Positions 26,595-45,130 are shown, counted from the stretch's first letter. The stretch: 62,266 nt of DNA from Minisyncoccota bacterium (GCA_041651415.1 JBAZJH010000004.1:1-62266), one strand, 5' to 3'. Numbers and translations are program-made. Notes: a model not told the origin generated them from the sequence alone.

Positions 26595-26612
26595 TTTTTA
26601 TTAGGAAAATCT

Positions 26613-26642: not shown

Positions 26643-27565
26643 TTTTTTAGCGGTGTTTTCCAGAGGGATGGATTAACAATGGCTTTTTCAGTTTGAGAAA
26701 ATTTTTCTTCCATAAAAAAGAAAAAGTCATTGGGCAGAGGAGGAAGATTAGTGGCAACGAATAGGACTTCCTTAATTTCAGCAGGAGTATTAGCGCCGAA
26801 AACAATAAAGTCGAGATTGGGATTTTTAAGAGTGAAAGCGAGAGTGGCGGCAAGAGGAGAGAGATGACAGCGATTAAGATAACTAATGAATTCATTTAAG
26901 AGGGGTTTAGCGCGGTTAAGATGAGGAGGAACTTTTTTAGAAGGCATAAGCAAAAGGCCTTGCAAGAAAGGGCTGCGAGCAAAGACAGTGATATTGTTTT
27001 TTTTAGCAAGATTAAAAAAGCCAGCGTGATTAAGACGTTGGTCAAAAATATTATAAGGAATTTGGATATAATCGACCGGCATATTAGCGGCGTAGAGAGC
27101 TTCGGCTTCGTCATAAATAGAGACGCCGAATTTTTTAATTAAACCATCAGATTTAGCTTTTTTAAGACCATTAATTATGTGGATATTATAAACATATTGA
27201 GGAGTATGGAGCAGATAACCATCCAGTTGGTCGATATTGAGGCGTTGGAGAGATTTATTAATTTCCAGGCGGATAATATCAGATGCTTTAACACCATCAG
27301 GATAATCATTTAAGGCGTAGGGTTTTAATTTGGAGATAATTTTTATTTTATTATTCAAATTGCGGGATTTAATCCATTTTCCCAAGACATCTTCGGCAGC
27401 GCCATAAGCAAAGGCAGTGTCAAAAGTATCAATGCCAAAAGTTAAAGCATTGTCTAAAATAGAAAAAGATTCTTTTAGAGAAGGCTGGCCTTTTATATTA
27501 TTTAAACCGTATGGCAGACCGAGCTCAACAGTGCCAAGAACCAGTTTAGAGTTTTTTTTATTCAT
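26630..27565 (-). CDS. Aldo/keto reductase
   Basis: LVLGTVELG, FDTAFAYG, IISKL, YLLH, FGVSIY, QIPYNIFD motifs. Confidence 0.85.
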   Translation of the reverse strand: MNKKNSKLVLGTVELGLPYGLNNIKGQPSLKESFSILDNALTFGIDTFDTAFAYGAAEDVLGKWIKSRNLNNKIKIISKLKPYALNDYPDGVKASDIIRLEINKSLQRLNIDQLDGYLLHTPQYVYNIHIINGLKKAKSDGLIKKFGVSIYDEAEALYAANMPVDYIQIPYNIFDQRLNHAGFFNLAKKNNITVFARSPFLQGLLLMPSKKVPPHLNRAKPLLNEFISYLNRCHLSPLAATLAFTLKNPNLDFIVFGANTPAEIKEVLFVATNLPPLPNDFFFFMEEKFSQTEKAIVNPSLWKTPLKKSRP

Positions 27566-28574: not shown

Positions 28575-28577
28575 AAT

Positions 28578-29561
28578 TTAGCAATTGTTAATCGCACATA
28601 CAATATCTTCCAGGTTTTTTTTACTCAAATATTGATGACAAGGGACAGCGAGGCATTTCTTATAAAGAGGATTAAACAGATTACGATTAATATCAAAATG
28701 AAGAATTTCAACATCGAAGTTTTTTCGAGATAGATCGTTTTTCATCTTAGAAAGCTTTTTTTCGGGAGCAAAAATAGGAAGAGCAAGAGGATTGGGATCT
28801 ATATTTGGATCGTGGTCGGGTATAAGAAATTCCGGAAGAATATTTTTTTTGAGGAAATTATAGTTTTCTTTTCTTTTTTTTAAGTCCGATTGCAAGGATT
28901 CCAGTGAAGGTGGAAAAAGATTTAAAGATTTTTGAGGAGTGGAATAAAAGGTGTGGTATTGGCTATAACATATTTCAGTGGCGGTTGAGGAAGGATGCCC
29001 TCGATAAGCTCTCAGAGCTTTACGGGCACACCAGTCGCTAAAGACTTTTTTTAGAAAATTTTCTTTTTGGTGAAATGGTTTTAAGTTTTGGCCAGAAACT
29101 TTTAAAAATCCTCCCATACCGGTGGGAAATATTTTTGAAAAACTAAAAATGGAAAAATTTCCAAAACTGCCTATATTTTTTCCTTTATACTTCGAATCAA
29201 AGGAATGGGCGCAATCTTCTATTATTAAAAGTTGTCTTTTTTTTGATTCAAGAATAACGGAATCCATATCTTGGGGATAGCCCCATTGATGGAGTATGAG
29301 GACAGCTTTTGTTTTTAAATCGGGAGTTTTGACTGGAAAAGAAGTTTGGTTGAGAATGGAGAGGACGCACTGACTTAGGAAATCGGGAATGAGGATGTGA
29401 TCGCAGCGTGATAGTTTGGATAGCTTCAGAGCTTCTAAAAGAGCGAATCTTCCTGAGCTGAAAATGCTTAGGGGGGAATTAAAAAAATATTCTAAAGTTT
29501 TTTTGACGTTAGATTTTTGAGGTCGGATTTTTTTGTTATAAGGGTAGATGGTTATAGGCAT
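28578..29561 (-). CDS. DegT/DnrJ/EryC1/StrS family PLP aminotransferase (short)
   Basis: SSGRFAL, IIEDCAHS, FSFSKIFP (PLP Lys), VPCHQYL motifs. Confidence 0.75.
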   Translation of the reverse strand: MPITIYPYNKKIRPQKSNVKKTLEYFFNSPLSIFSSGRFALLEALKLSKLSRCDHILIPDFLSQCVLSILNQTSFPVKTPDLKTKAVLILHQWGYPQDMDSVILESKKRQLLIIEDCAHSFDSKYKGKNIGSFGNFSIFSFSKIFPTGMGGFLKVSGQNLKPFHQKENFLKKVFSDWCARKALRAYRGHPSSTATEICYSQYHTFYSTPQKSLNLFPPSLESLQSDLKKRKENYNFLKKNILPEFLIPDHDPNIDPNPLALPIFAPEKKLSKMKNDLSRKNFDVEILHFDINRNLFNPLYKKCLAVPCHQYLSKKNLEDIVCAINNC

Positions 29562-30283
29562 TTTTCGATAATAAGATCTTCTCGTGAATCGGAAAAAGGA
29601 AGGCTAGATGATTGTTTTAAAAAAGAAAAACGGCGGATTTCGGGAGTATTTTTTAAAATTGATTCCAGAAGAGGTTTGGTTATAACAAGAGAAGAAGGAG
29701 CGGTGTTGATTTTATAGAAGCGATAAAAGAAATTAGTAGTTTCTTTTTTAATATAGTATTGAATGTTTTTTATAAAATTAATAATAGGACGGGATTGGCG
29801 GTGTTTTAAATTTGCTTCATATTTGTCTCTCAAAGGAATATCACCAATCAATATTCTTCCTCCAGGAGAAGTGGTTCGGATTAGTTCGAAAAAGAGTTTT
29901 TCAAGAGAGTTATAATTATCCAAATAATGGATAACGCTGTAACAGATAACAGCAGAAAATTGATTGTTAGGAAAATCTAATTTTTTATTGAGATCAACAA
30001 TTTTAAAGTCGGTCGGACAGAAAAATTTTTTTTGTCGGGCTATAAATAAAGCAGATGGAGCATTATCAGAAAGGGTAATTGATGAGCAAGGAAAAATATA
30101 TTGGGTGATGTCGCCAGTGCCGGAACCAACATCAAGAATTTTGTCTTCTTTTTTAAGATTTAGCTTAAGCGATATTTCTCGGGCAATTTTTTTAAATAAA
30201 AAAAGATGGAAAGAAAACATTCTTCCAGAGCGAAGGAAAGAAGGAGTTTTAGAAAGCTGGTTAAAGGAGTCGATGAATGACAT
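29552..30283 (-). CDS. Class I SAM-dependent methyltransferase
   Basis: ILDVGSGTG, YSVIHY, GGRILIGDIP motifs. Confidence 0.8.
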   Translation of the reverse strand: MSFIDSFNQLSKTPSFLRSGRMFSFHLFLFKKIAREISLKLNLKKEDKILDVGSGTGDITQYIFPCSSITLSDNAPSALFIARQKKFFCPTDFKIVDLNKKLDFPNNQFSAVICYSVIHYLDNYNSLEKLFFELIRTTSPGGRILIGDIPLRDKYEANLKHRQSRPIINFIKNIQYYIKKETTNFFYRFYKINTAPSSLVITKPLLESILKNTPEIRRFSFLKQSSSLPFSDSREDLIIEKCL

Positions 30284-31432
30284 TTATTTACTGAAAAAAT
30301 TTTTTATGGAAGAAATTGTTTTTTTTATTTGTTTTGAGGTTAATCCAGGATAGAGAGGAATGGTAATGGCGGTTTTGGCATAGAGATCAGCGATGGGGAG
30401 ATTTATGTTTTTAAAACCGTTTTCTTGATAATAAGGATGGGAATAAACAGGCGGATAATGAAAATTGATGCCAATGCCGGATTGTTTTAAATATTCATAA
30501 AGAGGAAGACGATCCTCCGGATTTTTTGTTCTGATGACAAAGAGATGCCAACTGGAGCGAATACTTTGGTCTTTAGCAGGAAGGATTATTTCCGGAAAAT
30601 TCTCGAGTTCTTTAAAATAAAAATCAGCAAGTTCTTGGCGTTTTTTTATAAAATTTTCAAGTTTTTTGAGCTGGCTTAAGCCGAGAGCGGAATTAATATC
30701 TGACAAGCGATAATTAAAACCGAGATTAGTCATAACATTAAAACCTTGTTCATTTTTTCTAATACCATGGCTTCTTAAGAGTTTTAATTTTTCATAAAGT
30801 TCTTGATTATCGGTGGCAATAGCGCCGCCTTCGCCGGTAGTAATAGATTTTACCGGATGAAAACTAAAAATAGTCATAGAGCTTTTTCCGCTACCTATGG
30901 GCTGGTTTTTGTAAAAAGCGCCAAGAGCATGAGCGGCATCTTCAATAACAGCAAGGTTGTGGCGGGAAGCAATATCCCAAATTTTTTCCATAGCGCAGGG
31001 ATGGCCGGCAAAATGAACGGGAACAATAGCTTTAGTTTTTTCAGTAATGAGAGATTCTATTTTTGATTCATCGATATTTGAGGTGTCTTCTCTAATATCA
31101 CAAAAAACTGGTTTTGCGCTGAGAACAAGAAGCATATTAGCGGTAGCGGCAAAAGTGTTTGGAGTGGTGATAACTTCATCGCCTTCTTTTAGTCCGGAAG
31201 CAAGATAAGCCAAGTGAAGAGCAGCGGTACCGGAGGAAACAGCAACAGCATAACGAGAACCGACGATTTTTGCTAAAGCTTTTTCAAAGGCCGGACCGAT
31301 CGGGCCTTGAGTAAGCCAATCAGACCGAAGAGTTTTAATAACGGAAAAAATGTCTTTCCAACTCAGATATTGTCGGCCGTAAGGGATTATATTTTTTGGA
31401 TTATTTCCTGAAGTTTTTCGTTGGTTAGCCAT
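30284..31432 (-). CDS. pseC: UDP-4-amino-4,6-dideoxy-N-acetyl-beta-L-altrosamine transaminase
   Basis: IPYGRQ, SDWLTQGP, SSGTAALH, EDAAHALG, FSFHPVKSITTGEGG, GFNYRLSD motifs; adjacent to pseB. Confidence 0.88.
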   Translation of the reverse strand: MANQRKTSGNNPKNIIPYGRQYLSWKDIFSVIKTLRSDWLTQGPIGPAFEKALAKIVGSRYAVAVSSGTAALHLAYLASGLKEGDEVITTPNTFAATANMLLVLSAKPVFCDIREDTSNIDESKIESLITEKTKAIVPVHFAGHPCAMEKIWDIASRHNLAVIEDAAHALGAFYKNQPIGSGKSSMTIFSFHPVKSITTGEGGAIATDNQELYEKLKLLRSHGIRKNEQGFNVMTNLGFNYRLSDINSALGLSQLKKLENFIKKRQELADFYFKELENFPEIILPAKDQSIRSSWHLFVIRTKNPEDRLPLYEYLKQSGIGINFHYPPVYSHPYYQENGFKNINLPIADLYAKTAITIPLYPGLTSKQIKKTISSIKNFFSK

Positions 31433-32376
31433 TCTGTGTTGGTATTGCTCGCAAAACGAAAAGAAGGATTGAGTTTTGACCCGATGGTTTCATATTTGGA
31501 AAAGACAGGGCTTTGAGCAAGTCCTGATTCAGGAATGACAACATAATATTTTTCTGTTTCATAACCGTGCTTGGATTCTTCTTCAGTGAGAAGAGTTTCA
31601 TGCAGTTTCTCTCCTGGCCTAATGCCAGTCACTTCCTGTTTTGCTGCCGGGGCGATTATTTTAAAGAGATCAGAGATTTTCATGCTGGGAATTTTAGGGA
31701 CAAATATTTCTCCTCCTTCCATATTCTTCAGCGCAAAAAGAACCAAGTTAAAACTTTGCCTTAAAGTTATCCAAAATCTAGTCATGTCAGGATGAGTTAT
31801 CTCAACTTTATCAACTTTTTTGTTTAAAAATTTTTCAACAACGCTGCCGCGGCTGCCGATAACATTGCCATAACGGACGGCGCTGAATTTAGTTTTTTGA
31901 GAGGGAGAATAAGAATTGCTGTTTATAAAAAGTTTTTCAGCGCAAAGTTTGGTAGCGCCGTAAAGATTAACCGGCTGAGCAGCTTTATCAGTAGAGATGA
32001 GCAAAACTTTTTCTATATTTTGATTAAGAGCGGCTTCAACAATATTTTGAGAACCGATAACGTTAGTTTTAATGGCTTCTTGAGGATTGTATTCAATAGC
32101 AGGAACTTGTTTTAGAGCAGCGGCATGGACAACAATATCCACTTTTTGAAAAGCTCTTTCTAAGCGTCCCAAGTCTCGAACATCACCGATAAAAAAGCGA
32201 AGACGATCTTCAAATTGGCGCAGTTCTTGCGCCATATGAAATTGCTTATATTCGTCACGGCTAAAGATTATTATTTTTTGAGCAAGAGAATTTTCCAGGA
32301 GAAATCGAGTGAAGCTTTTGCCGAAAGATCCAGTGCCGCCGGTAATGAGGATGGTTTTGTCTTTTAAAAATTCCAT
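31387..32376 (-). CDS. pseB: UDP-N-acetylglucosamine 4,6-dehydratase (inverting)
   Basis: LITGGTGSFG, FSRDEYKQ, AALKQVPAIEYNP, STDKA, LYGATK, RYGNVIGSRGSV, MTRFWI, GIRPGEKLHE motifs. Confidence 0.92.
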   Translation of the reverse strand: MEFLKDKTILITGGTGSFGKSFTRFLLENSLAQKIIIFSRDEYKQFHMAQELRQFEDRLRFFIGDVRDLGRLERAFQKVDIVVHAAALKQVPAIEYNPQEAIKTNVIGSQNIVEAALNQNIEKVLLISTDKAAQPVNLYGATKLCAEKLFINSNSYSPSQKTKFSAVRYGNVIGSRGSVVEKFLNKKVDKVEITHPDMTRFWITLRQSFNLVLFALKNMEGGEIFVPKIPSMKISDLFKIIAPAAKQEVTGIRPGEKLHETLLTEEESKHGYETEKYYVVIPESGLAQSPVFSKYETIGSKLNPSFRFASNTNTEWLTNEKLQEIIQKI

Positions 32377-32499: not shown

Positions 32500-33561
32500 A
32501 TGCTGATTTTGGCGGTGATGAACGATATAGGAAGTTGTAAAACGATTTTTCCAGTAGGATTATACTTGCGGAAAATAGGTCACAAAGTTAAATTTCTCGC
32601 GAGTGGAAATTCTTTAGGAATTTTATCAGAAGAGGATGAGAAGAAAATAAAAAAAGGAGATGTAAAAGCGGTGGTGACTGGAATGTCTACTGACCCATTT
32701 GAATATTCAGTAGCATCAACTTGGAGGGATAAATGTCCAATAATCGCAATTCCTGACCAGTGGTCAACGCCGTTTTTTTCTGGCGGTTGGAAAAATAGAG
32801 AATGTTATCCGGATGTTGTATGTGTAAATGATGAGATTGGGAGAGGAGCGGTGAGATCTTGGGGATTTAACGGTTTTATAGTTGAAACTGGCTGGCCGGC
32901 GCTTGATGTTTATGCGGATAGAGAAAAATGGAAAGCGAAAAATCAAGAGATGCGAGAAAAATTATATTTAGCTTTAAAGCTTTCTTTAAAAACTAAACTA
33001 ATCTTTTTTATCGGCCAGGGATCAAGAGAAAATGCGGAAGCATTGCAAGAACTTCTTGAAACAACTGCAAAAATTGGATTATCAGTTAAAGTGATAGCGA
33101 TGGAACATCCAAATATGAGACGACATGAACCGGAGGGGACAAAGTTTTGGGATAGGGTAGTTGGTGTTGAAGAAGAAAAAGGCCAGAGTTTGCTTTTAAA
33201 ATCTTCCGGATTTTCTTCTTTAGAGGTATTAATGGCGGCTGACGTAGTAGTATCTGATTTTTCTTCTATGTTGACTGAGGCGGCGATTTTAGGAAAATCG
33301 GTAATTTCTGTGTTTTATCCCAGTAAACGAATCTGTGAGATTTTCAAAAAGTGGGATTGGGCGCAAAATACATTTCCATTAGAAGCTCTGGGTTGTTGTT
33401 TTAAAGCAGAGAATCGCGACCAACTCCAAGAATTTTTGGAGCGAGCTTTAATTTCTGGATTTGAATTTTCGGAGCGTGCAAAAAAAGTTTTTCGGTTGGA
33501 TGGGAAGAATTCAGCAAGAGTAGCAAAGATTGTTGAAAATCTTGCCGAGTGTCATCTCTAA
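32500..33561 (+). CDS. Uncharacterised GT-B-fold-like protein (TagF/glycerophosphotransferase-like C-terminus)
   Basis: ETGWPALD and MEHP...ADVVVSDFSSMLTEAAILGK segments; divergent from pseB. Confidence 0.45.
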   Translation: MLILAVMNDIGSCKTIFPVGLYLRKIGHKVKFLASGNSLGILSEEDEKKIKKGDVKAVVTGMSTDPFEYSVASTWRDKCPIIAIPDQWSTPFFSGGWKNRECYPDVVCVNDEIGRGAVRSWGFNGFIVETGWPALDVYADREKWKAKNQEMREKLYLALKLSLKTKLIFFIGQGSRENAEALQELLETTAKIGLSVKVIAMEHPNMRRHEPEGTKFWDRVVGVEEEKGQSLLLKSSGFSSLEVLMAADVVVSDFSSMLTEAAILGKSVISVFYPSKRICEIFKKWDWAQNTFPLEALGCCFKAENRDQLQEFLERALISGFEFSERAKKVFRLDGKNSARVAKIVENLAECHL

Positions 33562-33568
33562 TGTATCG

Positions 33569-33598
33569 TTGCCTATCTTTATGAGATAGGCAATTTTA
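33569..33598 (+). terminator. Intrinsic terminator
   Basis: TTGCCTATCT-TTATG-AGATAGGCAA 10-bp stem plus T run, 8 nt after the stop codon. Confidence 0.65.
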
Positions 33599-33678: not shown

Positions 33679-34266
33679 ATGTTTATATTTAAAAAGATTG
33701 TAAATAAAATCAGAAATTTATTTTCTGAGAAGCCGAGAATCAAATTGCTGAAACTCATGCCTAAAAATTCGGTTTGCGCCGAAATTGGAGTTTGGAAAGG
33801 AGATTATTCAAAGAAGATGATAGATATTGTAAAGCCGAAAGAGCTGCATTTAATAGATCCTTGGCATTTTTTTAATGATGAAAAATATAAAGATTCAATA
33901 TATGGAGGAAAAGAAGCGAAATCAGAAAAAGATATGGAAAATATTTATAATGATGTTTTAAAGAGATTTTCAGAAAATAAGGAGGTAATAATAAAAAGAA
34001 ACACATTTGAAGAAATATTAAATGATTATCCGGATGGATATTTTGATTGGGTTTATATTGATGGGGACCACTCTTACGAAGCGGCAAAAAAAGATTTGCG
34101 CAATTCCGAAAAGAAAGTGAAAGAAGGAGGGTTTATCACTGGAGACGATTATCGGGAGGGAGGATGGTGGAAAGGCGGAGTAAAGAAGGCGGTTAATGAA
34201 TTTATAAAAGAACATCCTAATAAAAAAATAAGAATAATCGGAGATCAGTTTATAATAAAAAAGTAA
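33679..34266 (+). CDS. Class I SAM-dependent methyltransferase (Methyltransf_24-like)
   Basis: AEIGVWKG, LIDPW, DWVYIDGDHSYE, ITGDDY motifs. Confidence 0.85.
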   Translation: MFIFKKIVNKIRNLFSEKPRIKLLKLMPKNSVCAEIGVWKGDYSKKMIDIVKPKELHLIDPWHFFNDEKYKDSIYGGKEAKSEKDMENIYNDVLKRFSENKEVIIKRNTFEEILNDYPDGYFDWVYIDGDHSYEAAKKDLRNSEKKVKEGGFITGDDYREGGWWKGGVKKAVNEFIKEHPNKKIRIIGDQFIIKK

Positions 34267-34286
34267 AAACTATTTAAGCTTAACTA

Positions 34287-34895
34287 ATGAGCAGTTTATT
34301 TAAAGTAAATAAAAAAAAAGTTCTTTTTATCCATCTTCCCAGGACTGGCGGAACAAGCATGTGCAGAAGCTTAAAGCTACCTGTTTTAGGCCATCAACCT
34401 ATAACTAAATTTAAACCAAAACCTTTTCCTTTTTCTCTCTTTTGCAAAAAGCCTTTCTCTTTCGCTTTTGTAAGAAACCCATGGGATAGAGTAGTTTCAA
34501 TTTTTTTTCTTTTAAATGGAAAATGGACCAATAAAAAGAATGAGGCAGATCGAAAAACTTATGTAGAAAAATATAACGGGAATTTTGATAATTTTATTTT
34601 AGAATCTTTTAACGGCGACAAGCCTTTAATATTCAATCAGCAACATTTTAAACCGCAATATTTATATGTCTGTGATGAAAAAGGAGATATTGCCGTTGAT
34701 TTTATCGGCAAATATGAAAATATTCAGGAAGATTTTGATAAAATATGTTCTAAAATAGGGCTAGGCAAAATAGAACTTATCCGTGAAAATGTTAGCGTGC
34801 ACAAGAATTATCGAGAATACTATAATGAAAAAACAAAAGAAATTATCAGAAGAGCCTATCAAAAAGACATTGAATTATTCGGTTATGAATTTTAA
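34287..34895 (+). CDS. Sulfotransferase family 2 protein
   Basis: FIHLPRTGGTS (5'-phosphosulfate-binding loop) and FVRNPWDRVVS (3'-phosphate-binding), plus DFIGKYE and YQKDIELFGY. Confidence 0.88.
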   Translation: MSSLFKVNKKKVLFIHLPRTGGTSMCRSLKLPVLGHQPITKFKPKPFPFSLFCKKPFSFAFVRNPWDRVVSIFFLLNGKWTNKKNEADRKTYVEKYNGNFDNFILESFNGDKPLIFNQQHFKPQYLYVCDEKGDIAVDFIGKYENIQEDFDKICSKIGLGKIELIRENVSVHKNYREYYNEKTKEIIRRAYQKDIELFGYEF

Positions 34896-34930
34896 TTTTC
34901 AGAGAAAAAACTTTTTTGTATAAAATAATT

Positions 34931-37714
34931 TTAAAGAAGTTTTTTGGATTTTAAAAAGACGATAATTTTTTCAAGACTTTCTTTTATATCCGAAGAATCT
35001 GTTTTTATTTCCAAATCCGGATTTTTAGGAGATTCATAGGGATTGGATTCGGCTAAACCGATAAAGTTGTCTATCTCTCCTTTTAGAGCTTTTTGATACA
35101 ATCCTTTAACATCTCTTTTAATACAAGTTTCAAGGGAACTGTTGACAAAAAATTCAATGAACTTATCACTGATGATATTTTTTATTTTCTCTCGGTCTTC
35201 TAAATAGGGGGCAATAACAGGGATTAAAACAAAATCATAAGTTTGCCTTTTTTCTTTAGCAAGCTTGGCTATCAGAAAATTATTTTTTCTGATATCTTCG
35301 CGAGAAAACCCCAAGTGTTTATTTTGCGTATTTCTGACAGAATCTCCATCTATAATAAAGACGGATTTATCTTGAGTTTCTAAAACTTCTTTTAGTTTTT
35401 CCGCCAAAGTGGTTTTCCCTGATCCAGAAAGCCCGGTGAACCAAATAACAGACCCTGTTTTATCCGATTTTTCTTCAATAAATACTTCCTCTTTATTTTT
35501 TATAGCGTCTGTAATTATTTGAGATATTTCCGGGCGCATAAACCAATTGGGAAGAGACTCTCCTTTTTTTAAAATTTTTCTGGCTTCTGTTCCACTGATA
35601 TGCAGTTTTTCTCCTTCAGTGTGGTTATAAATGTCTTCCGATTCGTGAATATACTGATTTAACTTTTTAGAATAAAATACTTGGTCGAAGAAAATCGGTT
35701 TTATACCAAGGTCTGGAAATTGGCTGAAAATTTCATGAGAGGCTTTGGAGTGATAAAAATTTCCAACACCGGTATGGTCCCGACCGACAATAAAATGGCT
35801 GCAGCCGAAATTTTTTCGGCAAAGAGCGGTAAAAATAGCTTCTCTCGGACCGGCATAACGAGAGAAAGTGGAAAAAGTAGAAAAAACAACTTTGTTTTTC
35901 GGGTAGAAAAGATTATTCATTATTTTATAGCCTTCAATAATAAATTTAGCGTGAAAGTCTCCTGGCTTTTTTTTACCGATAATCGGATGAATAAAAAGCC
36001 CGTGGCACCCTTCTTTTTCCAAAGCTTTAAGCTGAATAAATTCGTGACTTTTATGAATGACGTTTCTGGTGTGAAAACCGATAATTTTAGTCCAATCTTT
36101 TTCTTCAAATAGCCTTCTTGTTTGTCTTGGGGTGAGTTCATATTCTTTTGTTTCCGAATCTCTTGTTTTAATAAGATTTATTTTCCCGCCTATAATAATG
36201 GGTTTGATGTTTTTTGCCCATTTTACTCCCGGATGTTCTGGATTTTCTGTCCCATATAATTTTCTTATAAAATTTTCTTTGTCCAACCTGAATATATCTT
36301 TAACGTTCAAGAGAGCAACTATTTCTTGGTGCTTATTAGTAAGGGCGATTTCTTGGCCTAGAAAGATATTTTTGGATTGTTCTTCGGAGATATCTAAAAT
36401 AATAGGAATTGTCCAAATTAGGCCGTTTTTAAGGCGCATATTATCAAGAACACAATCTAAATCATCTTTTTTCATAAAACCTTCCAAAGGACTGAAAGCT
36501 CCTATAGCAATCTGTTCGACATCCATCTCTTGATTTTCATCTAATTCTATTTTAAAGAGAGAATTCAAATAGTTTTGACGCGGGGGATTTTCCATTATGC
36601 GATTAACCAGCTTTCCTCCATGAGGGGGAACAAGAGAAGAGTTGTTTTTAAAAAAATAATTTAAATTTTTTAAAAGAGAAGATAGTTCTTGATTGGCTTT
36701 TTCAAATAGATTTGAATTATTTACCAGTTCGGCTTCATTGATTAATTTATTCATTACGGTTAAACATTCTATGGGGTGTTTACCGATGGCCGTTTCAGCT
36801 GCCAAAATCAAACCTTCCGCTCCATCCAAAATGGTATTAATTACGTCGTTAGCCTCGGCTCTAGTCGGCTTTTTTTCTTTAATCATTGTTTCTAAGAGAT
36901 TAGTGGCGATAAAAACCCCTTTATTTTTTTCCTTAGCTTTGCTGATGATTATTTTTTGAGTAAGAGGAATTTTTTCTATGGAAATTTCTTTACTTAGATC
37001 TCCTCTGTCAATAAGCAGATAGTCTGATTTAGAGATTATTTCGTCCAGATTTTCCAAAGCTTCAAAGCATTCTATTTTGGAAATGATTCTCATTGAGTTT
37101 TTTGTGGCGCGCCTTACCTCATCTATGTCGGAACCTTTGCGGACAAAAGAAACGGCGATGTGCCCGATTTTTTCTTTCAGCCCCAATTCAATGGATTGAT
37201 AGTCTTTTTCCGATAAGGGGGGAAGAAAAAATTTTTTAGGGAAAACAGGGTCGATAATGACGGCTTTATTTTTTCCCAGAGAGCCGCTAGTAATAACTTT
37301 GGCGGTTATGAATCCTTCTTTCCTTGTTGAAACGTCGGAAATTTTTAGAATAAGAGTATTAAAATCTATGTAAACAAGATCTCCTTTTTCCAATTGATTG
37401 ATGATGTGACCAGGTTTCAAATTTATTTTTTCTTCATTGCCGAGAGTTTCTTCTTTGTAAATTTTTACGGTGTCGTTTTCATTTAAAATTACTGAATCTT
37501 TATAAAGATTGCCGGTTCTTACTTGCGATCCTTCAGTGTCAATGATAAAAGGAAGACCTACTTTTTTAGAGAGATCAATAAAATATTTCAAGTCATTCAA
37601 AGAAGAGTGAGACATATTGACTCTAATAAAACTAACTCCAGCCTCTTTAATCTTTATTAAATGAGATTCGGTGTTAGTTGCTGGTCCGACGGTGACGATT
37701 ATTTTTGTATTCAT
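34931..37714 (-). CDS. pyk-sat-cysC: Triple fusion: pyruvate kinase (A+B domains) - ATP sulfurylase - adenylylsulfate kinase
   Basis: PK: TKIIVTVGPA, RVNMSH, ISKIE, RGDL, ATNLLETM, PTRAE, ETAIGKHP. Sat: PHGGKL, FSPLEGFM, TRNVIHKSH, YAGPREA, HFIVGRDH. CysC: WFTGLSGSGKTT, DGD.VR, RDVKGLY, PYESP. One continuous frame. Confidence 0.92.
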   Translation of the reverse strand: MNTKIIVTVGPATNTESHLIKIKEAGVSFIRVNMSHSSLNDLKYFIDLSKKVGLPFIIDTEGSQVRTGNLYKDSVILNENDTVKIYKEETLGNEEKINLKPGHIINQLEKGDLVYIDFNTLILKISDVSTRKEGFITAKVITSGSLGKNKAVIIDPVFPKKFFLPPLSEKDYQSIELGLKEKIGHIAVSFVRKGSDIDEVRRATKNSMRIISKIECFEALENLDEIISKSDYLLIDRGDLSKEISIEKIPLTQKIIISKAKEKNKGVFIATNLLETMIKEKKPTRAEANDVINTILDGAEGLILAAETAIGKHPIECLTVMNKLINEAELVNNSNLFEKANQELSSLLKNLNYFFKNNSSLVPPHGGKLVNRIMENPPRQNYLNSLFKIELDENQEMDVEQIAIGAFSPLEGFMKKDDLDCVLDNMRLKNGLIWTIPIILDISEEQSKNIFLGQEIALTNKHQEIVALLNVKDIFRLDKENFIRKLYGTENPEHPGVKWAKNIKPIIIGGKINLIKTRDSETKEYELTPRQTRRLFEEKDWTKIIGFHTRNVIHKSHEFIQLKALEKEGCHGLFIHPIIGKKKPGDFHAKFIIEGYKIMNNLFYPKNKVVFSTFSTFSRYAGPREAIFTALCRKNFGCSHFIVGRDHTGVGNFYHSKASHEIFSQFPDLGIKPIFFDQVFYSKKLNQYIHESEDIYNHTEGEKLHISGTEARKILKKGESLPNWFMRPEISQIITDAIKNKEEVFIEEKSDKTGSVIWFTGLSGSGKTTLAEKLKEVLETQDKSVFIIDGDSVRNTQNKHLGFSREDIRKNNFLIAKLAKEKRQTYDFVLIPVIAPYLEDREKIKNIISDKFIEFFVNSSLETCIKRDVKGLYQKALKGEIDNFIGLAESNPYESPKNPDLEIKTDSSDIKESLEKIIVFLKSKKLL

Positions 37715-37756: not shown

Positions 37757-38821
37757 TTATAAATAGAATTTTTGGAAGCAACGATCAGCCATTATGCGCC
37801 AGGAATAATTTTTTACTTCAAGAAGGGCGTTTCTGACGATTTTTTCGGATAAAGATTTATCTTTTAATATTTTTTCGGCTTGAGCAGAGATTTCTTCAAT
37901 GTTCTCCGATTCAGCGATTAAAATGTTTTCATTTTCTTTTCCTAAGTCTTTTACCATACCGACAGATGTTGAGACAAGAGGCGTGCCAGTAGCCCAAGAT
38001 TCAAGAAGAGCCATGGGTCCGCCTTCAGTTCTTGAAGTGATGAGATAAAGGTCGAGAGCATGATAAAAATCGGCAATGTCGTTGTATTTTTTTGAAAATT
38101 TGTGGGTAAAAGGGATATTAGATTGAGAAAGGCGATTTTTGACGTAACCGCGGGAGGGTCCGGAGAGAAGAACGTGAAGAGGATATTTTTTGGAAAGAAG
38201 TTCAACGGTATCACAAAAAATATCCGGTCCTTTAACTAATTTTGGTTCCAGACCGTCTTCCCAACCGTTGCCGTCTTTTTGAAAGGAGCCGATGGTGATT
38301 TTATCAAGAGGCAAGCCAAGACGCTTTTTTATTTCTGTCTTTTCGGAAGGATTTTTAAGAGGTTTAAAAATTTTAAGGTCGATACCGAGAGGGACTACTT
38401 TAATTTGTTCTTCCTTGATTCCAAGTTTAACCAGCCCTTCTTTAGTGACAGAGCAAGAGGTGTGGACGGTGATGTTTTTTTCTTTTATTTCTTCGGCAAG
38501 TTCTTTTTCTATATCACGATTATTCAAATGATACCAAGAGACGATTATTTTATTGGAAAGATGAACTTTATTTTTATGCGAGGCAAAAACATGAACAGAA
38601 CCGAAATGAATTATTTTATTTTTAATAAAGAGAGGGGAAAGAGAAAGACGAACTTTGGCTAACTTTGCTTTATTCAAGTTCTCCGCTATTTCTTGAGTGA
38701 CAGTTTTAATAATCCAGCTATTTTCATCGGGAATCAAAAAAATTTCGCCGCGGCGGAATAAATTCAAAAAAGATTGAAAATAAAAACGCAATTTTCTTAA
38801 TATTTTTTTTAAAGTAAACAT
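37757..38821 (-). CDS. GT4 family glycosyltransferase
   Basis: GSFQKDG, KGPDIF, SRTEGGPMALLESWATG motifs. Confidence 0.85.
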   Translation of the reverse strand: MFTLKKILRKLRFYFQSFLNLFRRGEIFLIPDENSWIIKTVTQEIAENLNKAKLAKVRLSLSPLFIKNKIIHFGSVHVFASHKNKVHLSNKIIVSWYHLNNRDIEKELAEEIKEKNITVHTSCSVTKEGLVKLGIKEEQIKVVPLGIDLKIFKPLKNPSEKTEIKKRLGLPLDKITIGSFQKDGNGWEDGLEPKLVKGPDIFCDTVELLSKKYPLHVLLSGPSRGYVKNRLSQSNIPFTHKFSKKYNDIADFYHALDLYLITSRTEGGPMALLESWATGTPLVSTSVGMVKDLGKENENILIAESENIEEISAQAEKILKDKSLSEKIVRNALLEVKNYSWRIMADRCFQKFYL

Positions 38822-38822
38822 T

Positions 38823-39542
38823 TTATTTTTTAGACAAAACTCCCAGAAATTCTCCGAAATTAACGATAAAATTTTCTATTTTCCAACCGGACTCGTCTAA
38901 TTCCTTTTTCAGTCCTTCCAAAGTATATTCAATGCGGTGAGTGGGGTCGAGACGGTATTCAAAACCATTTTCTTTTTTATAAACGGCGAGCCAGTCGCGG
39001 GTTAAAAGAGGAACTCTTAAAATAATAGTATCGGAAAGCCGTCCCAATTTTTTTAGAAAATCGACTCGATTTTCTAAATGTTCTAATACATTGGAAAGAA
39101 CGATTTTATTAAACTGCCGATTAAATTCAAAGGAAACGGCGTCGCCAAAGACAAAAGAGAGATTAGGAAGATTGTTTTCTTTTTTGGCTATCGCCAAGCT
39201 TTTTTTGTTCAGATCGATGCCGACGACTTCTCTTGCGCGGGCGGCGATAATTTTAGAAAGATAACCTTCATGGCAGCCGACATCAAGAATGACATCGTTT
39301 TTTTCAACGCAGGAAAGAAAAAAAGAAAAATAATCAATGATTTTATGCTTGGGGTGGGAATTGTTATTCAAGCGGCGGGCGAGAGAGGTTATTTTGGAAT
39401 AGCTTTTATTATGAAGATAAATATAAAAGCGAAGCTTAAAGCGATTTAAAAAAGAATTATTTTTCCAAAGAGCGGAATAGACAGATTTAAAAGTCTGCCA
39501 TGGTCCGTAATGAAATAAAGAATAAAAAAGTTTTTTTATCAT
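38823..39542 (-). CDS. Class I SAM-dependent methyltransferase
   Basis: ILDVGCHEG, GIDLN, SNVLEHL motifs. Confidence 0.8.
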   Translation of the reverse strand: MIKKLFYSLFHYGPWQTFKSVYSALWKNNSFLNRFKLRFYIYLHNKSYSKITSLARRLNNNSHPKHKIIDYFSFFLSCVEKNDVILDVGCHEGYLSKIIAARAREVVGIDLNKKSLAIAKKENNLPNLSFVFGDAVSFEFNRQFNKIVLSNVLEHLENRVDFLKKLGRLSDTIILRVPLLTRDWLAVYKKENGFEYRLDPTHRIEYTLEGLKKELDESGWKIENFIVNFGEFLGVLSKK

Positions 39543-40465
39543 TAAAAGATTGATTTATTTTTAAAAGAATGGATGACAAGAGCATAAAAACCGGGAGAAG
39601 TTTTTTGGGAGGAATTCAGAAAACTGTTTTTAACAGCGGAAAGGAGCAGAGAGTTGTAGTTTTCAGTTTCAAGTTCGCGACGGTCTTTGGAACGGGCAAT
39701 ATATTTAGGTTTGGTAATAAAATCGAAATGGAGGCGATTGCAATTTTTGTCGCCGAGATTAAAGAGAAAACAATCGGAAAAATCCGAAAAGAGGCGGGAA
39801 ATTTTGGAAACGGTTTTGGGAGTGTATTCGCGAAAACCATGACCGCGATAAAGAGGAAGGCAGGCGGCGGAGGGGAAGAGATGAATTTGAAGAGTCGGTT
39901 TTTTTTCCGATAAAATGAATTTTTTGATTTGTTTAAAAAAATAAAGGTCTTTTTTAAAATGCTCGATAGCGGATTGGCTGATAAAGAGATTGGTTTTTTT
40001 AGGAATTGAAGGAAAAACATTTTGGCTGTTTCCTTCATGAAATTTAAAATCCGGGAATTCTTTTTCCAAGACCGGCCAATTTTTGTTGAAAACAGAATCT
40101 ATGCCGACATAAGAAGAAATTTCAGCGCCGGCTTTATTAGCAAAAAATTTTCCGTAATTGCCGGAGCCGCAACCAACGTCAAAAATATTAATGGCGTTAA
40201 GTTCTTCCTTGATTTTTGTCCAAGGGAGGGAAAGCCAGAAAAGGTCGGAAAGCTTTCTCGAGGGAGAACTTTTTATTTCGGTCAAAGGCCAAAATTTTTT
40301 CAGTTCTTGTTCGCTTAAAGAAAAATTTTTTATTTTCAGTTTTTTATCAAGAAACGAATAAGGAAGAGAGTTGTTCAGGCGATTGCCGGCCATAAAAAGA
40401 CGCATGCCCCATTTGGAAAGCCGGCGGTCAGCGTTGATGTTAAAAAAAGAAGTGGAGCCAAACAT
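39542..40465 (-). CDS. Class I SAM-dependent methyltransferase
   Basis: IFDVGCGSG, YVGID, SQSAIEHF motifs. Confidence 0.7.
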   Translation of the reverse strand: MFGSTSFFNINADRRLSKWGMRLFMAGNRLNNSLPYSFLDKKLKIKNFSLSEQELKKFWPLTEIKSSPSRKLSDLFWLSLPWTKIKEELNAINIFDVGCGSGNYGKFFANKAGAEISSYVGIDSVFNKNWPVLEKEFPDFKFHEGNSQNVFPSIPKKTNLFISQSAIEHFKKDLYFFKQIKKFILSEKKPTLQIHLFPSAACLPLYRGHGFREYTPKTVSKISRLFSDFSDCFLFNLGDKNCNRLHFDFITKPKYIARSKDRRELETENYNSLLLSAVKNSFLNSSQKTSPGFYALVIHSFKNKSIF

Positions 40466-40487
40466 AAAAATAATTAATTAAGAATTT

Positions 40488-42482
40488 CTAATTTCTAACT
40501 AATTTTTTATAAATACTAATTTCTTTATCTATTTGGGTGGAAAGGGAAAAATTTTCTAAAACAAAGCGGCGAGCATTTTTTCCTAATTTTTTTTGAAGTT
40601 CGGCGTTTACAGCGAGCTCTTTTATTTTTTCTCTTAAGCTTTCCGGAGAAATTTCAGAAAGAAGGCCGTTAAAATTATCGCTAATCACTTCGCGGCTGCC
40701 GGGAACGTCGGTGGCGACACAAGCAAGTCCGCAAGACATGGCTTCGAGAAGGGTTTTAGGCATACCTTCATAAAGAGAAGGGAGAATAAAAATTTCATAA
40801 CGATTAAGCGTTTCCGGCAGGGAATTGTTCGGGATGATGCCGAGAAAATTAACAGAAACATTTTTTTCTTCGGCAAAATTTTCCAGTTTATCTTTTAATT
40901 TGCCTGAACCGACTATATCTAAAGAAAGATTGGTTCCGGAAAGAGCTTCAATCAGAGAAAAAAGGTTTTTTTGCTCATTGAGACGGCCGACAAAAATAAG
41001 GCGGTCAGAATATTTGTTCAGATTTAGAGGTTTGAAAATGTCAGTATCGATATAGTTAGCAATAACGGAAATTTTATTTTCAGGGATTTTATATTCTTCT
41101 ATCAGATATTTTTTATCAGCGAGGGAAGTGACAAAAGCGTGATTAGAAAAACGATAGGCGGTTTTTTCCAAGCGTTTAATTTTAAAAATATTTTTATTTT
41201 CTTTAGTGTCGAAAAGCGACTGAGTATAGCCGGTGCGGATGATAAGTTTGGCGAAAGGATTGATAAACTTGGCAATGAGAGCGGTTTTGGCGCCGCGCAT
41301 TTGATTGGTTTTAAAAAAGTGAGAACGGAGAATTGTCGGAAGATGGAGAAAGGGGGCAAACCAATAATAAAGACGAATGGGCATCCGAACATTTTTGTAG
41401 ATTATTTTAATGTTCGGTTTTAAAAATTTTTGGTAAGCGAGTTCGCTCTTGTCGCCATAAGTGAAAATAAAAATATTTTTGAAGCGCAGAGCTAAGAGAT
41501 TATAAGAAGCGATTTCGCGGGAAAGCAGGCCGGATTTTTCCCAGTTTTTGAAATTCATGCCTGAGGTCATGAAAAGGACGAGATTTTTTTTCTTTAAATC
41601 GGCAATTTTCGGTTCGGCGTATTTTAATTTGTCTATAAAAAAATAAAATAATTTTTTTATCAGATTGTATGTTTTAGGAAAACGAGAGCGTAAATACGAG
41701 GAAAAAGGAACTTTAGCTCTTAAAGCGTAAATAGTTTTCGGGTCAATAATATTTCCTCCGTGCCTTTTCATAACTTCTTTTCTTTCATTATTGCAAAGAT
41801 TTTTTTTTGAAACTGTAACGGATTTTTCCCATTGGCGATAGGTAGCCAAAATTTTTTTTAAGTGAAGCGATTTTCCGTTTTTTAAGATTCTTAGCCACAA
41901 ATCATAATCGGGGGCGCATTTTAAGCCTTCATCGAGATAACCAATTTTATCAATTATTGCTTTAGTAAAAAAAGCGGCGGGTTGGCAGATACTGTGGTTA
42001 CGGCGTAAAAATTTTTCAAAATTTCCCGGCTCTGAAGAAAGAAGTTTTCTATGACCGGTTTCTTGATAAAGAGAATAGCAATCTCCGTAAATGAGGCTCA
42101 TTTCGGGGTGGTTATTAAATTCGTTTATTATGGATTTTATAGTGTTAGGTTCAAAATAATCATCCGAATTAAGCCAGCCGATTATTTCTCCGGACGATTC
42201 TTTTATGCCTTTATTGACAGCGCTAGCAAATCCTTTATTTTTTTGTTCGAACCATTTTAAATTTAAATGGTCGCAATTAATCGGAAGTTGTTTGTTTTTT
42301 AGAAGCAGTTCATATTTTTTTATTATTTCTATGCCGTTATCAGGAGAACCATCATTAATGATGATGTGTTCCAAATTAAAATCGCCTTCTTGAGAAAGAA
42401 CGCTTTTTATGGTTTGTTCCAGGGTCTCTTCTTGATTGTAGAAGGGGGTGATGATGGAAACGCTTTTGAACTTTTTCGGCAT
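40488..42482 (-). CDS. GT2 - GT4 glycosyltransferase fusion
   Basis: N-half: SIITPFYNQ, NDGSPD, WLNSDD, ICQPAAF, DYDLWLR. C-half: VGRLNEQKN, YEGMPKTLLEAMSCG. Confidence 0.85.
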   Translation of the reverse strand: MPKKFKSVSIITPFYNQEETLEQTIKSVLSQEGDFNLEHIIINDGSPDNGIEIIKKYELLLKNKQLPINCDHLNLKWFEQKNKGFASAVNKGIKESSGEIIGWLNSDDYFEPNTIKSIINEFNNHPEMSLIYGDCYSLYQETGHRKLLSSEPGNFEKFLRRNHSICQPAAFFTKAIIDKIGYLDEGLKCAPDYDLWLRILKNGKSLHLKKILATYRQWEKSVTVSKKNLCNNERKEVMKRHGGNIIDPKTIYALRAKVPFSSYLRSRFPKTYNLIKKLFYFFIDKLKYAEPKIADLKKKNLVLFMTSGMNFKNWEKSGLLSREIASYNLLALRFKNIFIFTYGDKSELAYQKFLKPNIKIIYKNVRMPIRLYYWFAPFLHLPTILRSHFFKTNQMRGAKTALIAKFINPFAKLIIRTGYTQSLFDTKENKNIFKIKRLEKTAYRFSNHAFVTSLADKKYLIEEYKIPENKISVIANYIDTDIFKPLNLNKYSDRLIFVGRLNEQKNLFSLIEALSGTNLSLDIVGSGKLKDKLENFAEEKNVSVNFLGIIPNNSLPETLNRYEIFILPSLYEGMPKTLLEAMSCGLACVATDVPGSREVISDNFNGLLSEISPESLREKIKELAVNAELQKKLGKNARRFVLENFSLSTQIDKEISIYKKLVRN

Positions 42483-45125: not shown

Positions 45126-45130
45126 TTTAA

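Follow-up and report, generated by a model that had tools for sequence, protein, structure and literature searches.

For what purpose would a bacterium with a genome of only 741 kb (0.74 Mb; 99% complete) activate sulfate? The question was raised by a stretch of 62,266 nucleotides (the window hereafter) from an uncultured Minisyncoccota bacterium, in which a methyltransferase-sulfotransferase gene pair converges on a gene for PAPS synthesis. The first-pass annotation had assigned the DNA to a probable CPR bacterium, which fits both the genome size and the nearest homologue, a Paceibacterota MAG (90% identity). The three open reading frames were found exactly as they had been described, with 35 bp between the converging stop codons (Table 1). 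The spacer is A+T-rich and contains no convincing G+C hairpin; in a relative that keeps the synteny of the three genes (L096), the corresponding spacer is 30 bp. The dN/dS values against this relative were 0.05-0.09 for the methyltransferase, the sulfotransferase, and every domain of the fusion, all of which are under purifying selection. The sequencing runs containing the locus were DNA runs only.

Table 1. Features of the sulfation module and its surroundings, in window coordinates
Feature	Position	Strand	Evidence
Pseudaminic-acid-type nonulosonate and tailoring genes	19215-32376	-	NCBIfam, Pfam
PseI	19215-20318	-	TIGR03586, 344.8 vs cut-off 340.25
PIG-L-type deacetylase, formyltransferase, WbqC	within 19215-32376	-	
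Cytidylyltransferase, generic	22637-23377	-	
Radical-SAM gene	25533-26594	+ (opposite to rest of span)	
PseC	30284-31432	-	TIGR03588, 453.9 vs cut-off 423.5
PseB	31387-32376	-	TIGR03589, 449.9 vs cut-off 407.75
GT-B-like protein, 353 aa, weak Glyphos_transf/Epimerase_2 similarity	32500-33561	+	Pfam (weak)
Terminator-like hairpin, 12-bp stem, 3' of the GT-B-like gene	33568-33594		
SAM-dependent methyltransferase (Methyltransf_24), 195 aa, first of the pair	33679-34266	+	PF13578, E 3.4e-15
PAPS-dependent sulfotransferase family 2 (Sulfotransfer_2), predicted, 202 aa, minimal form	34287-34895	+	PF03567, E 2.3e-17
Convergent spacer between two stop codons, 35 bp	34896-34930	.	Sequence read directly
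Tri-functional protein, predicted, 927 aa	34931-37714	-	Pfam, NCBIfam, AlphaFold2, Foldseek
APS kinase domain (aa 754-904)	35003-35455	-	PF01583, E 5e-45
PUA_2 (aa 363-516) and ATP-sulfurylase catalytic domain (aa 524-735)	35510-36628	-	PF14306, E 1e-47; PF01747, E 8e-74
Pyruvate-kinase A+B barrel (aa 2-317)	36764-37711	-	PF00224, E 6e-71
GT4	37757-38821	-	
Methyltransferase-like gene	38823-39542	-	
Methyltransferase-like gene	39542-40465	-	
GT2-GT4 fusion	40488-42482	-	
Wzy_C/O-antigen-ligase-like protein with TPR	42591-44840	+	
Wzx-type flippase	45352-46797	-	
Initiating sugar transferase Bac_transf	46797-48158	-	

A pyruvate kinase fused to a PAPS-synthase-like protein

The first-pass annotation had read the minus-strand gene as a PAPS-synthesis fusion. 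Its ATP sulfurylase and APS kinase were indeed present, but a pyruvate kinase had gone unmentioned, which makes the protein a three-enzyme fusion. From the N- to the C-terminus, the protein consists of a pyruvate-kinase barrel, a PUA-like domain with ATP sulfurylase, and an APS kinase. The sulfurylase part scored 362.7 bits with TIGR00339 (cut-off 322.95), and the APS kinase part scored 170 bits with TIGR00455 (cut-off 138.7). With NF004040, the bifunctional Sat-CysC equivalog, the protein scored 439.1 bits (cut-off 669); its function is predicted to be PAPS-synthase-like, yet it stands outside that equivalog, from which it also differs in having HTRN for QTRN. The AlphaFold2 model (pLDDT 88.9, pTM 0.75) was matched by Foldseek to the Aquifex Sat-CysC enzyme 2gks (best match, E 1.7e-51, 33% identity), the ATP sulfurylase 8a8d (TM 0.94), PykF (rmsd 3.4 A), 1i2d, and 1m8p, and no PDB entry in this search spanned all three parts. 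In the literature searched, no description of a pyruvate-kinase/PAPS-synthase fusion was found.

The catalytic residues of all three domains were invariant when the fusions were aligned. The sulfurylase motifs HTRNVIHKSH and GRDHTG (H554, H557, G644-R-D-H-T-G) were unchanged, and the APS-kinase P-loop GLSGSGKT was conserved. At the QxRN position, HTRN replaced QTRN in 28 of the 28 fusions, with R and N kept. The dN/dS of the whole gene against the relative was 0.069.

The pyruvate-kinase part matched PF00224 with 239.7 bits (cut-off 30) over model positions 3-327 of 328, and is 33-34% identical to PykF and the G. stearothermophilus enzyme. Like these two and the short pyruvate kinases lacking a C domain (NF005234), it has a complete A+B barrel with the catalytic Lys, Glu, Asp, Thr, and Arg conserved. 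Unlike an ordinary pyruvate kinase, it has the PUA/sulfurylase part in place of the C-terminal allosteric domain, carries DTEGSQ for DTKGPE, DRGDLS for ARGDLG, and ATN for ATQ throughout the fusions, and is a second copy in its genome. Since a separate stand-alone pyruvate kinase (343 aa, C1:65984-67015) is encoded in the same genome, the fused one is additional and dedicated; its identity is 33% to the stand-alone enzyme but 49-62% to fusions in other phyla and archaea.

The fused kinase would most likely regenerate ATP, with PEP, from the ADP by which APS kinase is blocked. Alternatively, the domain may have been re-purposed, either to act on another nucleotide or substrate with PEP or to serve as an oligomerisation or allosteric scaffold replacing the C domain of pyruvate kinase. 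Residues Q64, D236, S241, and N272 beside the active site are specific to the family and invariant in it (E61 in 25/28), and these departures together with the sulfurylase HTRN make an altered specificity possible. Further in favor of re-purposing, no Pfam match to the regulatory PK_C domain was found in the 927-aa protein, and its TIGR01064 score of 292.9 bits, which covers only model positions 2-347 of 476, is just under the cut-off of 306.4. A scaffold role has a parallel in fungal ATP sulfurylases, in which a dead APS-kinase-like domain is an allosteric module; the structural matches 1i2d and 1m8p are presumably examples. However, R31, N33, S35, D59, T60, R66, K213, E215, D239, T271, and E307 were invariant in the 28 fusions, and the equivalents of R31, K213, E215, D239, T271, and E307 bind PEP, Mg2+, and phosphate. 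Moreover, the B (lid) domain is complete, and the dN/dS of the pyruvate-kinase domain (0.063) is as low as those of the other domains. ADP removal also demonstrably benefits PAPS synthesis: PAPSS1 accumulated PAPS in vitro only with pyruvate kinase/PEP regeneration of ATP, because of ADP-APS dead-end inhibition (PMC9885120). As in such cascades, sulfurylase, APS kinase, and pyruvate kinase are combined here, where ADP would be removed and ATP restored; the cascade was an engineered mix of separate enzymes, whereas the present protein is one natural polypeptide with predicted activities. A re-purposed pyruvate kinase was thus considered unlikely.

The sulfotransferase and methyltransferase pair

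On the basis of profile, motifs, and fold, the 202-aa protein is predicted to be a PAPS-dependent family 2 sulfotransferase. It scored 64.4 bits with PF03567 (cut-off 22), and the same domain was present in 120 of the 120 listed among its 405 homologues. Its 5'-PSB motif (consensus PKxGxT/S; HLPRTGGTS, aa 16-24) and 3'-PB motif (consensus RxPxxRxxS; RNPWDRVVS, aa 63-71) are aligned by the profile with those of SULT2A1, and R63, N64, P65, D67, and S71 were invariant in 35 homologues. The top 50 PDB matches of its AlphaFold2 model (pLDDT 89) in Foldseek were all sulfotransferases, as weak matches (TM ~0.5, best E 1.6e-3). Its dN/dS was 0.056.

This was the only sulfotransferase detected in the genome, and just 35 bp separate its gene from the sole sulfate-activating one. 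The genome was searched with custom HMMs of limited sensitivity, which missed the window's own sulfotransferase, so the count is a lower bound. A sulfotransferase would fall within 1 kb of the activating gene by chance with odds of <1% in 741 kb; the pairing exceeds chance. The methyltransferase showed weak similarity to TylF-like sugar O-methyltransferases (TylF, E 2e-4; 21.2 bits, below the 23-bit cut-off), and its gene occupies the identical position in the relative (dN/dS 0.046).

The predicted acceptor and the glycan locus

The nonulosonate context claimed for the module was borne out, as PseB, PseC, and PseI all scored above their NCBIfam cut-offs. No clear match to PseG or PseH was found in the locus, and for PseF there was only the generic cytidylyltransferase. 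Formyltransferases, together with further tailoring genes, hint at a modified pseudaminic derivative. The GT-B-like protein is a possible nonulosonate or glycerophosphate transferase; Glyphos_transf and Capsule_synth proteins adjoin the fusion in 12-13 related loci. On the other side, the fusion gene is the last of a run, 42 bp after GT4 and downstream of four co-directional genes (37757-42482); beyond this run lie the predicted genes of the locus for export and assembly (42591-48158). The methyltransferase, sulfotransferase, and fusion are most likely a dedicated sulfation cassette in a Wzx/Wzy-type surface-glycan locus of ~48 kb with pseudaminic-acid genes, and it is from this gene context that a surface glycan is predicted as the sulfate acceptor. 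The further suggestion of the first-pass annotation, a sulfated and methylated coat that could mimic or bind host surfaces, is speculative.

A collection with one genome per species yielded relatives of the fusion in 384 stretches, from Patescibacteria, DPANN, and several other phyla. Among the 47 loci flanked by 5 kb or more on both sides, a sulfotransferase lay within 10 kb of the fusion in 42, within 1 kb in 31, and within 100 bp in 25; sulfotransferase clusters were the nearest recurrent neighbours. NeuB, NeuC-like, CMP-NulO-synthetase-like, and DegT genes adjoined the fusion in 20-26 of 82 loci. The first-pass annotation would have been contradicted by fusions occurring mostly without sulfotransferase or glycan genes; the opposite was found, which favors it. 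In a sample of 401 Patescibacteria genomes, a sulfate-activating gene of any kind was present in 6, two of them with the pyruvate-kinase fusion, and 4 of 4 Sat-CysC genes without pyruvate kinase abutted a sulfotransferase. Of the 61 genomes in the bacterium's order, 2 carried the fusion. Sulfate activation is an accessory trait.

The cassette might instead sulfate a small metabolite, a lipid, or a protein tyrosine, its position in the glycan locus reflecting mere clustering of accessory genes. NRPS genes (C-A-PCP) and the gene of a PALP enzyme flank the pair of sulfotransferase and pyruvate-kinase-fused PAPS synthase in two genomes, those of Flavobacterium sp. Leaf82 and [Flexibacter] ATCC 35103. 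Besides, no solved bacterial family 2 sulfotransferase is known to have an established acceptor, the 202-aa protein had no sequence match in the PDB, and the terminator-like hairpin separates the pair from its upstream gene. Against this, the pair sits among at least 10 glycosyltransferases, the Pse genes, Wzx, Wzy_C, and Bac_transf; the fusion closes a glycosyltransferase gene run; the window ORFs that were scanned include no NRPS/PKS or peptide-precursor gene; and nonulosonate and glycosyltransferase genes are neighbours in most related loci. An acceptor other than a surface glycan is therefore distinctly improbable.

Sulfur metabolism in the genome

The absence of sulfite reductase, cysH, dsr, and apr genes, claimed earlier for the window, holds for the whole genome. 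No match to PAPS_reduct (CysH/CysD, PF01507), NIR_SIR (sulfite reductase/Dsr, PF01077), or PALP (CysK/M, PF00291) and no full-length AprA-type match were found in the 99%-complete genome, and each of the three Pfam searches gave matches in 11-14 of 14 control genomes. No use of PAPS other than sulfation is apparent in this genome, in agreement with the proposal that sulfate is activated for decoration and not for reduction. Assimilatory cysteine/methionine synthesis, or a dissimilatory pathway with reversed ATP sulfurylase, is effectively refuted here by these absences, even though Sat-CysC enzymes are assimilatory in many bacteria and CysH was found in 10 of 15 larger fusion-bearing genomes (elsewhere in the genome; on a different contig, with cysD, in Flavobacterium), whereas it was present in 3 of 35 small ones (one strong match only) and 59 of 61 order members lack the fusion.

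The module had also been called self-contained. This description had to be abandoned, because no known sulfate importer and no CysQ were found in the genome. SulP (PF00916) and BPD_transp_1/CysTW (PF00528) were absent, and no known sulfate carrier was recognized among the 62 membrane proteins predicted to be multi-pass (20 of these and several from the window by Pfam, the remainder by eye). A membrane H+-pyrophosphatase (885 bits) and a single small DHH/DHHA1 protein are encoded.

Proposed mechanism and comparison with known systems

The whole is best explained, with good probability, by a dedicated glycan-sulfation cassette with pyruvate-kinase-based ADP recycling. The ATP-sulfurylase domain would form APS and PPi, the latter being removed by the membrane H+-pyrophosphatase, and the APS-kinase domain would form PAPS and ADP. 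The fused barrel, free of a regulatory C domain, would convert ADP and PEP to ATP; this would sustain ATP and keep the APS kinase from being blocked in a dead-end enzyme-ADP-APS complex. The sulfotransferase and the methyltransferase would then act in the cytoplasm, placing sulfate and methyl on a sugar of the lipid-linked glycan ahead of its outward flipping by Wzx, and PAP would probably be cleared by the DHH/DHHA1 protein. Pyruvate-kinase activity and role, PAP disposal, and sulfate entry are predicted steps of this scheme.

Dedicated sulfation cassettes include rhizobial NodP/NodQ with NodH (Nod factor), Xanthomonas RaxP/RaxQ with RaxST, and M. tuberculosis CysDNC with Stf0. Their sulfurylase is of the GTPase-coupled CysD/CysN type, and their hosts retain the full assimilatory pathway. 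The present module resembles them in having accessory sulfate activation beside a sulfotransferase, which would supply PAPS for secreted or surface decoration and not for cysteine. It differs in that its sulfurylase is of the Sat type, fused to APS kinase and pyruvate kinase, in an organism without assimilation genes or, by the PAPS_reduct/CysD search of its genome, a CysD/CysN-type sulfurylase. The Aquifex aeolicus enzyme (2gks; NF004040) and metazoan PAPSS1/2 likewise join a Sat-type sulfurylase and APS kinase in one chain; however, they have no pyruvate-kinase domain, and the domain order of PAPSS is opposite to that of the present fusion. In granular-sludge EPS, Pse/Leg-type nonulosonates and sulfate esters occurred together in glycoconjugates, for which the authors found the responsible sulfotransferases hard to find (PMC10483923); there the chemistry is known without genes, whereas the present locus is known from genes alone.

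The pyruvate kinase fused to the PAPS-synthase-like protein, absent from the first-pass annotation, is the most unusual feature of the module. A tiny genome without a sulfate-to-cysteine route nonetheless keeps the enzymes for sulfate activation and transfer.

Gene content and integrity of the cassette

As shown in the table, the three open reading frames of the cassette have exactly the coordinates and strands that the first-pass annotation had assigned to them, with the stop codons of the sulfotransferase (ST) and the fusion gene facing each other. No convincing intrinsic terminator was found in the convergent spacer. On the minus strand, a run of genes (GT2-GT4, MT-like, MT, GT4, fusion) ends with the fusion, and on the plus strand the methyltransferase (MT) and ST pair comes after a terminator-like hairpin and a GT-B-like gene.

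Features of the cassette, the fusion protein and the surrounding locus, and loci of other genomes with membrane-protein genes near a fusion relative
Feature	Position	Strand	Remarks
Methyltransferase (MT), 195 aa	33679-34266	+	Pfam Methyltransf_24
Sulfotransferase (ST), 202 aa	34287-34895	+	Pfam Sulfotransfer_2, 64 bits (cut-off 22)
Spacer between convergent stop codons of ST and fusion	34896-34930		35 bp
Fusion, 927 aa	34931-37714	-	four Pfam domains in order
Pyruvate kinase (PK) barrel	36764-37711; aa 2-317	-	complete, model positions 3-327 of 328, E 6e-71
PUA_2	aa 363-516	-	Pfam
ATP sulfurylase	35510-36145; aa 524-735	-	Pfam
APS kinase	aa 754-904	-	Pfam
ABC exporter	14077-15882		glycan locus
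Radical-SAM/SPASM enzyme	25533-26594		glycan locus
FemAB-like protein	27558-28574		glycan locus
Wzy_C/TPR protein	42591-44840	+
Lamin Tail Domain (LTD) protein	51135-52490	+
PQ-loop neighbour	L014, L016, L019, L032, L047, L078, L080, L081		loci of other genomes
CPA2-family neighbour	L004 (12244-13500), L040, L026, L036, L062, L065		loci of other genomes

To examine the integrity of the cassette, the genes were compared with those of a relative, L096, which has the same gene order (PseB, a 361-aa gene, the Methyltransf_24 and Sulfotransfer_2 genes, and then the convergent fusion) and is 86-92% identical in nucleotide sequence over four compared genes. The Nei-Gojobori dN/dS values were 0.046 for the MT, 0.056 for the ST and 0.069 for the fusion; within the fusion they were 0.063 for the PK part, 0.060 for PUA plus sulfurylase and 0.091 for the APS kinase. 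The ST has kept its 5'-PSB loop (HLPRTGGTS) and 3'-PB motif (RNPWDRVVS), both invariant across 35 homologues. Its predicted structure was confident (pLDDT 89), and the 50 best PDB structures matched by it were all sulfotransferases, though weakly; a sequence search of the PDB gave no match and a profile search weak matches only. The sequencing runs containing the locus are DNA runs only, from landfill and groundwater. Taken together, the cassette is real and looks functional.

The fusion protein carries a pyruvate kinase domain

The first-pass annotation had described this gene as a PAPS-synthesis fusion, and the N-terminal PK barrel is an addition to that label. The protein exceeds the NCBIfam cut-offs of the domain models for sulfate adenylyltransferase and adenylylsulfate kinase, and falls below the whole-protein equivalog cut-offs of both Sat-CysC and pyruvate kinase. 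The full fusion was predicted with a pLDDT of 88.9 and a pTM of 0.75, and the model matched the Aquifex Sat-CysC (2gks), the sulfurylase of M. thermolithotrophicus (8a8d, TM 0.94) and E. coli PykF (rmsd of approximately 3.4 A). No PDB entry covering all three parts was found by structure matching.

The simplest role for the PK domain would be to convert ADP and PEP into ATP and pyruvate, beside the ADP-releasing APS kinase. In APS kinases, enzyme, ADP and APS combine in a dead-end complex. The PPi that also holds back the sulfurylase could be removed by the H+-pyrophosphatase encoded in the genome. In an engineered cascade, PAPS accumulation required regeneration by PK and PEP (PMC9885120). 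The equivalents of the PK catalytic residues (R31, N33, S35, D59, T60, R66, K213, E215, D239, T271 and E307) were invariant in 28 divergent fusions. Nevertheless, all 28 also depart from canonical PKs in the same way, with DTEGSQ[VI]R for DTKGPEIR (E61 of this motif in 25 of them), L-x-DRGDLS for MVARGDLG and ATNLLE for ATQMLE; the sulfurylase domain has HTRN in place of QTRN in every one. The PK domain may therefore have a changed specificity. As judged from sequence, our confidence in PEP-driven ATP recycling by the PK domain is moderate. A second, stand-alone PK of 343 aa is encoded elsewhere in the genome (contig C1:65984-67015, -), and this housekeeping enzyme is likewise short and devoid of a C-terminal regulatory domain.

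The genome lacks sulfate reduction and cysteine synthesis

The assembly, recovered from a landfill metagenome, amounts to 741,344 bp over 10 contigs (completeness 99%, contamination 0.85%), and a MAG of the Paceibacterota is closest to it. Families were searched for in all six frames, with 14 control genomes as validation of every search, and this genome gave no match for PAPS_reduct (CysH/CysD), NIR_SIR (Sir/Dsr), PALP (CysK/M) or Inositol_P (CysQ). The matches to FAD_binding_2 (PF00890), the family searched for AprA, covered 42-58 residues of the Rossmann/dinucleotide motif only and were rejected. Since the family searches found none of their genes, sulfate reduction and cysteine synthesis are excluded for this genome. 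The full cysteine-assimilation route, which would have spoken against the first-pass reading, is thus missing genome-wide. A small DHH/DHHA1 protein (285 aa) is, we infer, the only candidate PAP phosphatase.

The genome was also examined for a sulfate transporter, as the first-pass annotation had suggested, and no known importer was found: SulP and BPD_transp_1 (the CysTW-type permease) gave no match in six-frame searches validated in the same way, and no known sulfate carrier was present among the surveyed membrane proteins. For this survey 62 multi-pass proteins were predicted; 20 of them and several of those in the window were searched with Pfam, and the remainder were judged by eye. The Pfam searches identified the H+-pyrophosphatase (885 bits), a lactate permease, a Kef-like exchanger, a Trp/Tyr permease, a Na/Ca exchanger and AI-2E, ZIP and EamA proteins, while SecY, FtsW and MraY were recognised by eye only.

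Relatives of the fusion are linked to sulfotransferases

More than 75 protein-database clusters have the triple architecture, and a 750-aa PK-sulfurylase form is found in many more; they are named just "sulfate adenylyltransferase" or "pyruvate kinase". A locus search with a single sequence gave only 6 loci, and an alignment-based search was used instead; with one genome per species, it found relatives encoded in 384 stretches. The hosts include Patescibacteria, DPANN archaea, Chloroflexota, NC10, Omnitrophota, Acidobacteriota, Planctomycetota and Gemmatimonadota, and the two cultured carriers are Flavobacterium sp. Leaf82 and [Flexibacter] sp. ATCC 35103.

Open reading frames were called in 82 loci and the neighbours were clustered. 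Four sulfotransferase families lie directly beside the fusion, a Sulfotransfer_2/Gal-3-O-ST-like family in 24 loci and Sulfotransfer_1/3 families in 14, 10 and 9 loci. Flanks of 5 kb or more on either side were available for 47 loci, and in these a detectable sulfotransferase was found within 10 kb in 42, within 1 kb in 31 and within 100 bp in 25; the 42 of 47 is a lower bound, since HMMs built from the neighbour sulfotransferase clusters missed the ST of the window. The ST and the MT of the window both remained singletons in the BLAST clustering, and jackhmmer seeded with the ST returned itself alone. For this reason, that the genome holds a single sulfotransferase is a soft statement. A stand-alone APS kinase adjoins the 750-aa forms in 18 loci, and other direct neighbours were Capsule_synth and Glyphos_transf proteins, a methyltransferase and a 97-aa PQ-loop membrane protein. 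Clusters of NeuB, NeuC-like epimerase, cytidylyltransferase and DegT aminotransferase each occurred in 20-26 of the 82 loci, and whole-locus maps repeatedly showed nonulosonate genes together with one or more sulfotransferases, a methyltransferase and the fusion. Hence the co-occurrence of fusion and sulfotransferase, set beforehand as a test, was borne out, with nonulosonate genes frequent nearby. In L054, a DPANN-type locus, a sulfatase gene (8745-9989; PF00884, E 2e-44) lies immediately upstream of the PK-sulfurylase gene.

Two membrane proteins accompany the family. A PQ-loop/SemiSWEET-like protein of 90-105 aa (Pfam PQ-loop, E 3e-12) adjoins the PK-sulfurylase gene in 8 of the 82 loci and is a candidate carrier of sulfate (or of PAPS or sugar). 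A 418-aa transporter of the CPA2/Na_H_Exchanger family, found in 6 loci and wedged between the PK-sulfurylase and APS kinase genes in L004 and L040, could be an unrecognised sulfate importer. Neither has a counterpart in the genome studied here, whose Kef-like protein shares just approximately 25% identity with the CPA2 cluster.

In 61 genomes of the same order, the fusion was present only in this genome and its congener. An even sample of 401 Patescibacteria contained any Sat-type enzyme in 6 genomes, with the PK-fused form in two; in all four non-PK Sat-CysC loci of the sample a sulfotransferase abutted the gene. PAPS_reduct-family genes were present in 3 of 35 fusion-bearing genomes of at most 1.4 Mb (one strong match), compared to 10 of 15 of at least 2.2 Mb (n = 50); in the Flavobacterium genome, these genes and the fusion are on separate contigs. 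From this distribution, the sulfotransferase linkage and the scarcity of CysH, small genomes of this kind have sulfate activation as a rare accessory trait that goes with sulfation and not with assimilation. We have high confidence that dedicated sulfation is the use of the cassette.

The surrounding glycan locus and the sulfate acceptor

PseB, PseC and PseI, of the pseudaminic acid (Pse) pathway, all exceed the curated NCBIfam cut-offs, and around them lie genes for a cytidylyltransferase, formyltransferases, a PIG-L-type deacetylase, WbqC and a radical-SAM enzyme. Glycosyltransferases number at least 10 and methyltransferases at least 8, and further genes encode an ABC exporter, a Wzx flippase, a Wzy_C/TPR protein and an initiating Bac_transf. 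From this gene content around the Pse genes, the glycan locus extends over approximately 1-48158, about 6.5% of the 741-kb genome. WbqC and two formyltransferase-like genes lie inside these limits. The Wzy_C protein, of the O-antigen-ligase/O-oligosaccharyltransferase family, has a C-terminal TPR array and could attach the glycan to protein instead of lipid. Just downstream of the locus, a 451-aa protein with two LTD matches is possibly a surface protein.

As the acceptor, this context points to a sugar of the glycan that contains Pse and is exported by Wzx. The first-pass annotation had proposed that sulfate is activated only to decorate a surface glycan. The part excluding assimilation stands; the restriction to glycans does not extend to the family, since in the two Flavobacterium-type genomes, L062 (Leaf82) and L065 (ATCC 35103), the cassette is embedded in an NRPS cluster (CPA2, PALP enzyme, NRPS with C-A-PCP domains, Sulfotransfer_2, PK-ATPS-APSK, NRPS), which probably makes a sulfated non-ribosomal peptide. 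The PK-PAPS synthase is therefore a general sulfation supply unit and not glycan-specific.

Discussion

Dedicated sulfation cassettes include NodPQ-NodH, RaxPQ-RaxST and CysDNC-Stf0, which the cassette of the window resembles in function. However, its sulfurylase is of the Sat type and is fused to APS kinase and pyruvate kinase, and sulfur assimilation is absent from its organism. No paper on a PK-sulfurylase fusion or on sulfation in Patescibacteria came up in full-text searches; relative to the literature searched, the PK-sulfurylase-APS kinase fusion is undescribed.

A wider reading would join these observations, with nonulosonate genes, one or two sulfotransferases, a methyltransferase and the fusion making a sulfated, O-methylated, sialic-acid-like cap. 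The cap would be a surface signature shared by the ultra-small CPR and DPANN symbionts, with gene transfer having carried the gene set between domains; PEP would drive the PAPS supply through a dedicated class of PKs without C-domain, and the PQ-loop and CPA2 neighbours (14 loci) would be the missing sulfate importers. We regard this combination as unlikely, and our confidence in any ecological interpretation of the cassette, such as a possible part in adhesion or host mimicry, is low. If the combination were true, PEP and PK would be a third drive for sulfate activation, besides GTP hydrolysis by CysN and the pull of pyrophosphatase.

The fusion is a natural counterpart of the enzyme cocktail that engineers use for PAPS and, if active, would be a one-protein, PEP-driven PAPS generator of use in chemoenzymatic sulfation. 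Because two cultured Flavobacterium-type strains carry it, genetic work is possible in a tractable model.

Sulfated glycans are central in animal cell-surface biology and poorly documented in bacteria and archaea. In environmental EPS, sulfate esters co-occur with Pse/Leg-type sugars, and the sulfotransferases responsible are hard to find (PMC10483923). A PK-fused PAPS synthase beside a sulfotransferase is a compact genetic marker for sulfated glycans, present in hundreds of uncultured species and often within nonulosonate loci. The devotion of approximately 6% of a 0.7-Mb genome to one decorated surface polymer suggests that surface chemistry is important for the cell-dependent lifestyle of this organism.
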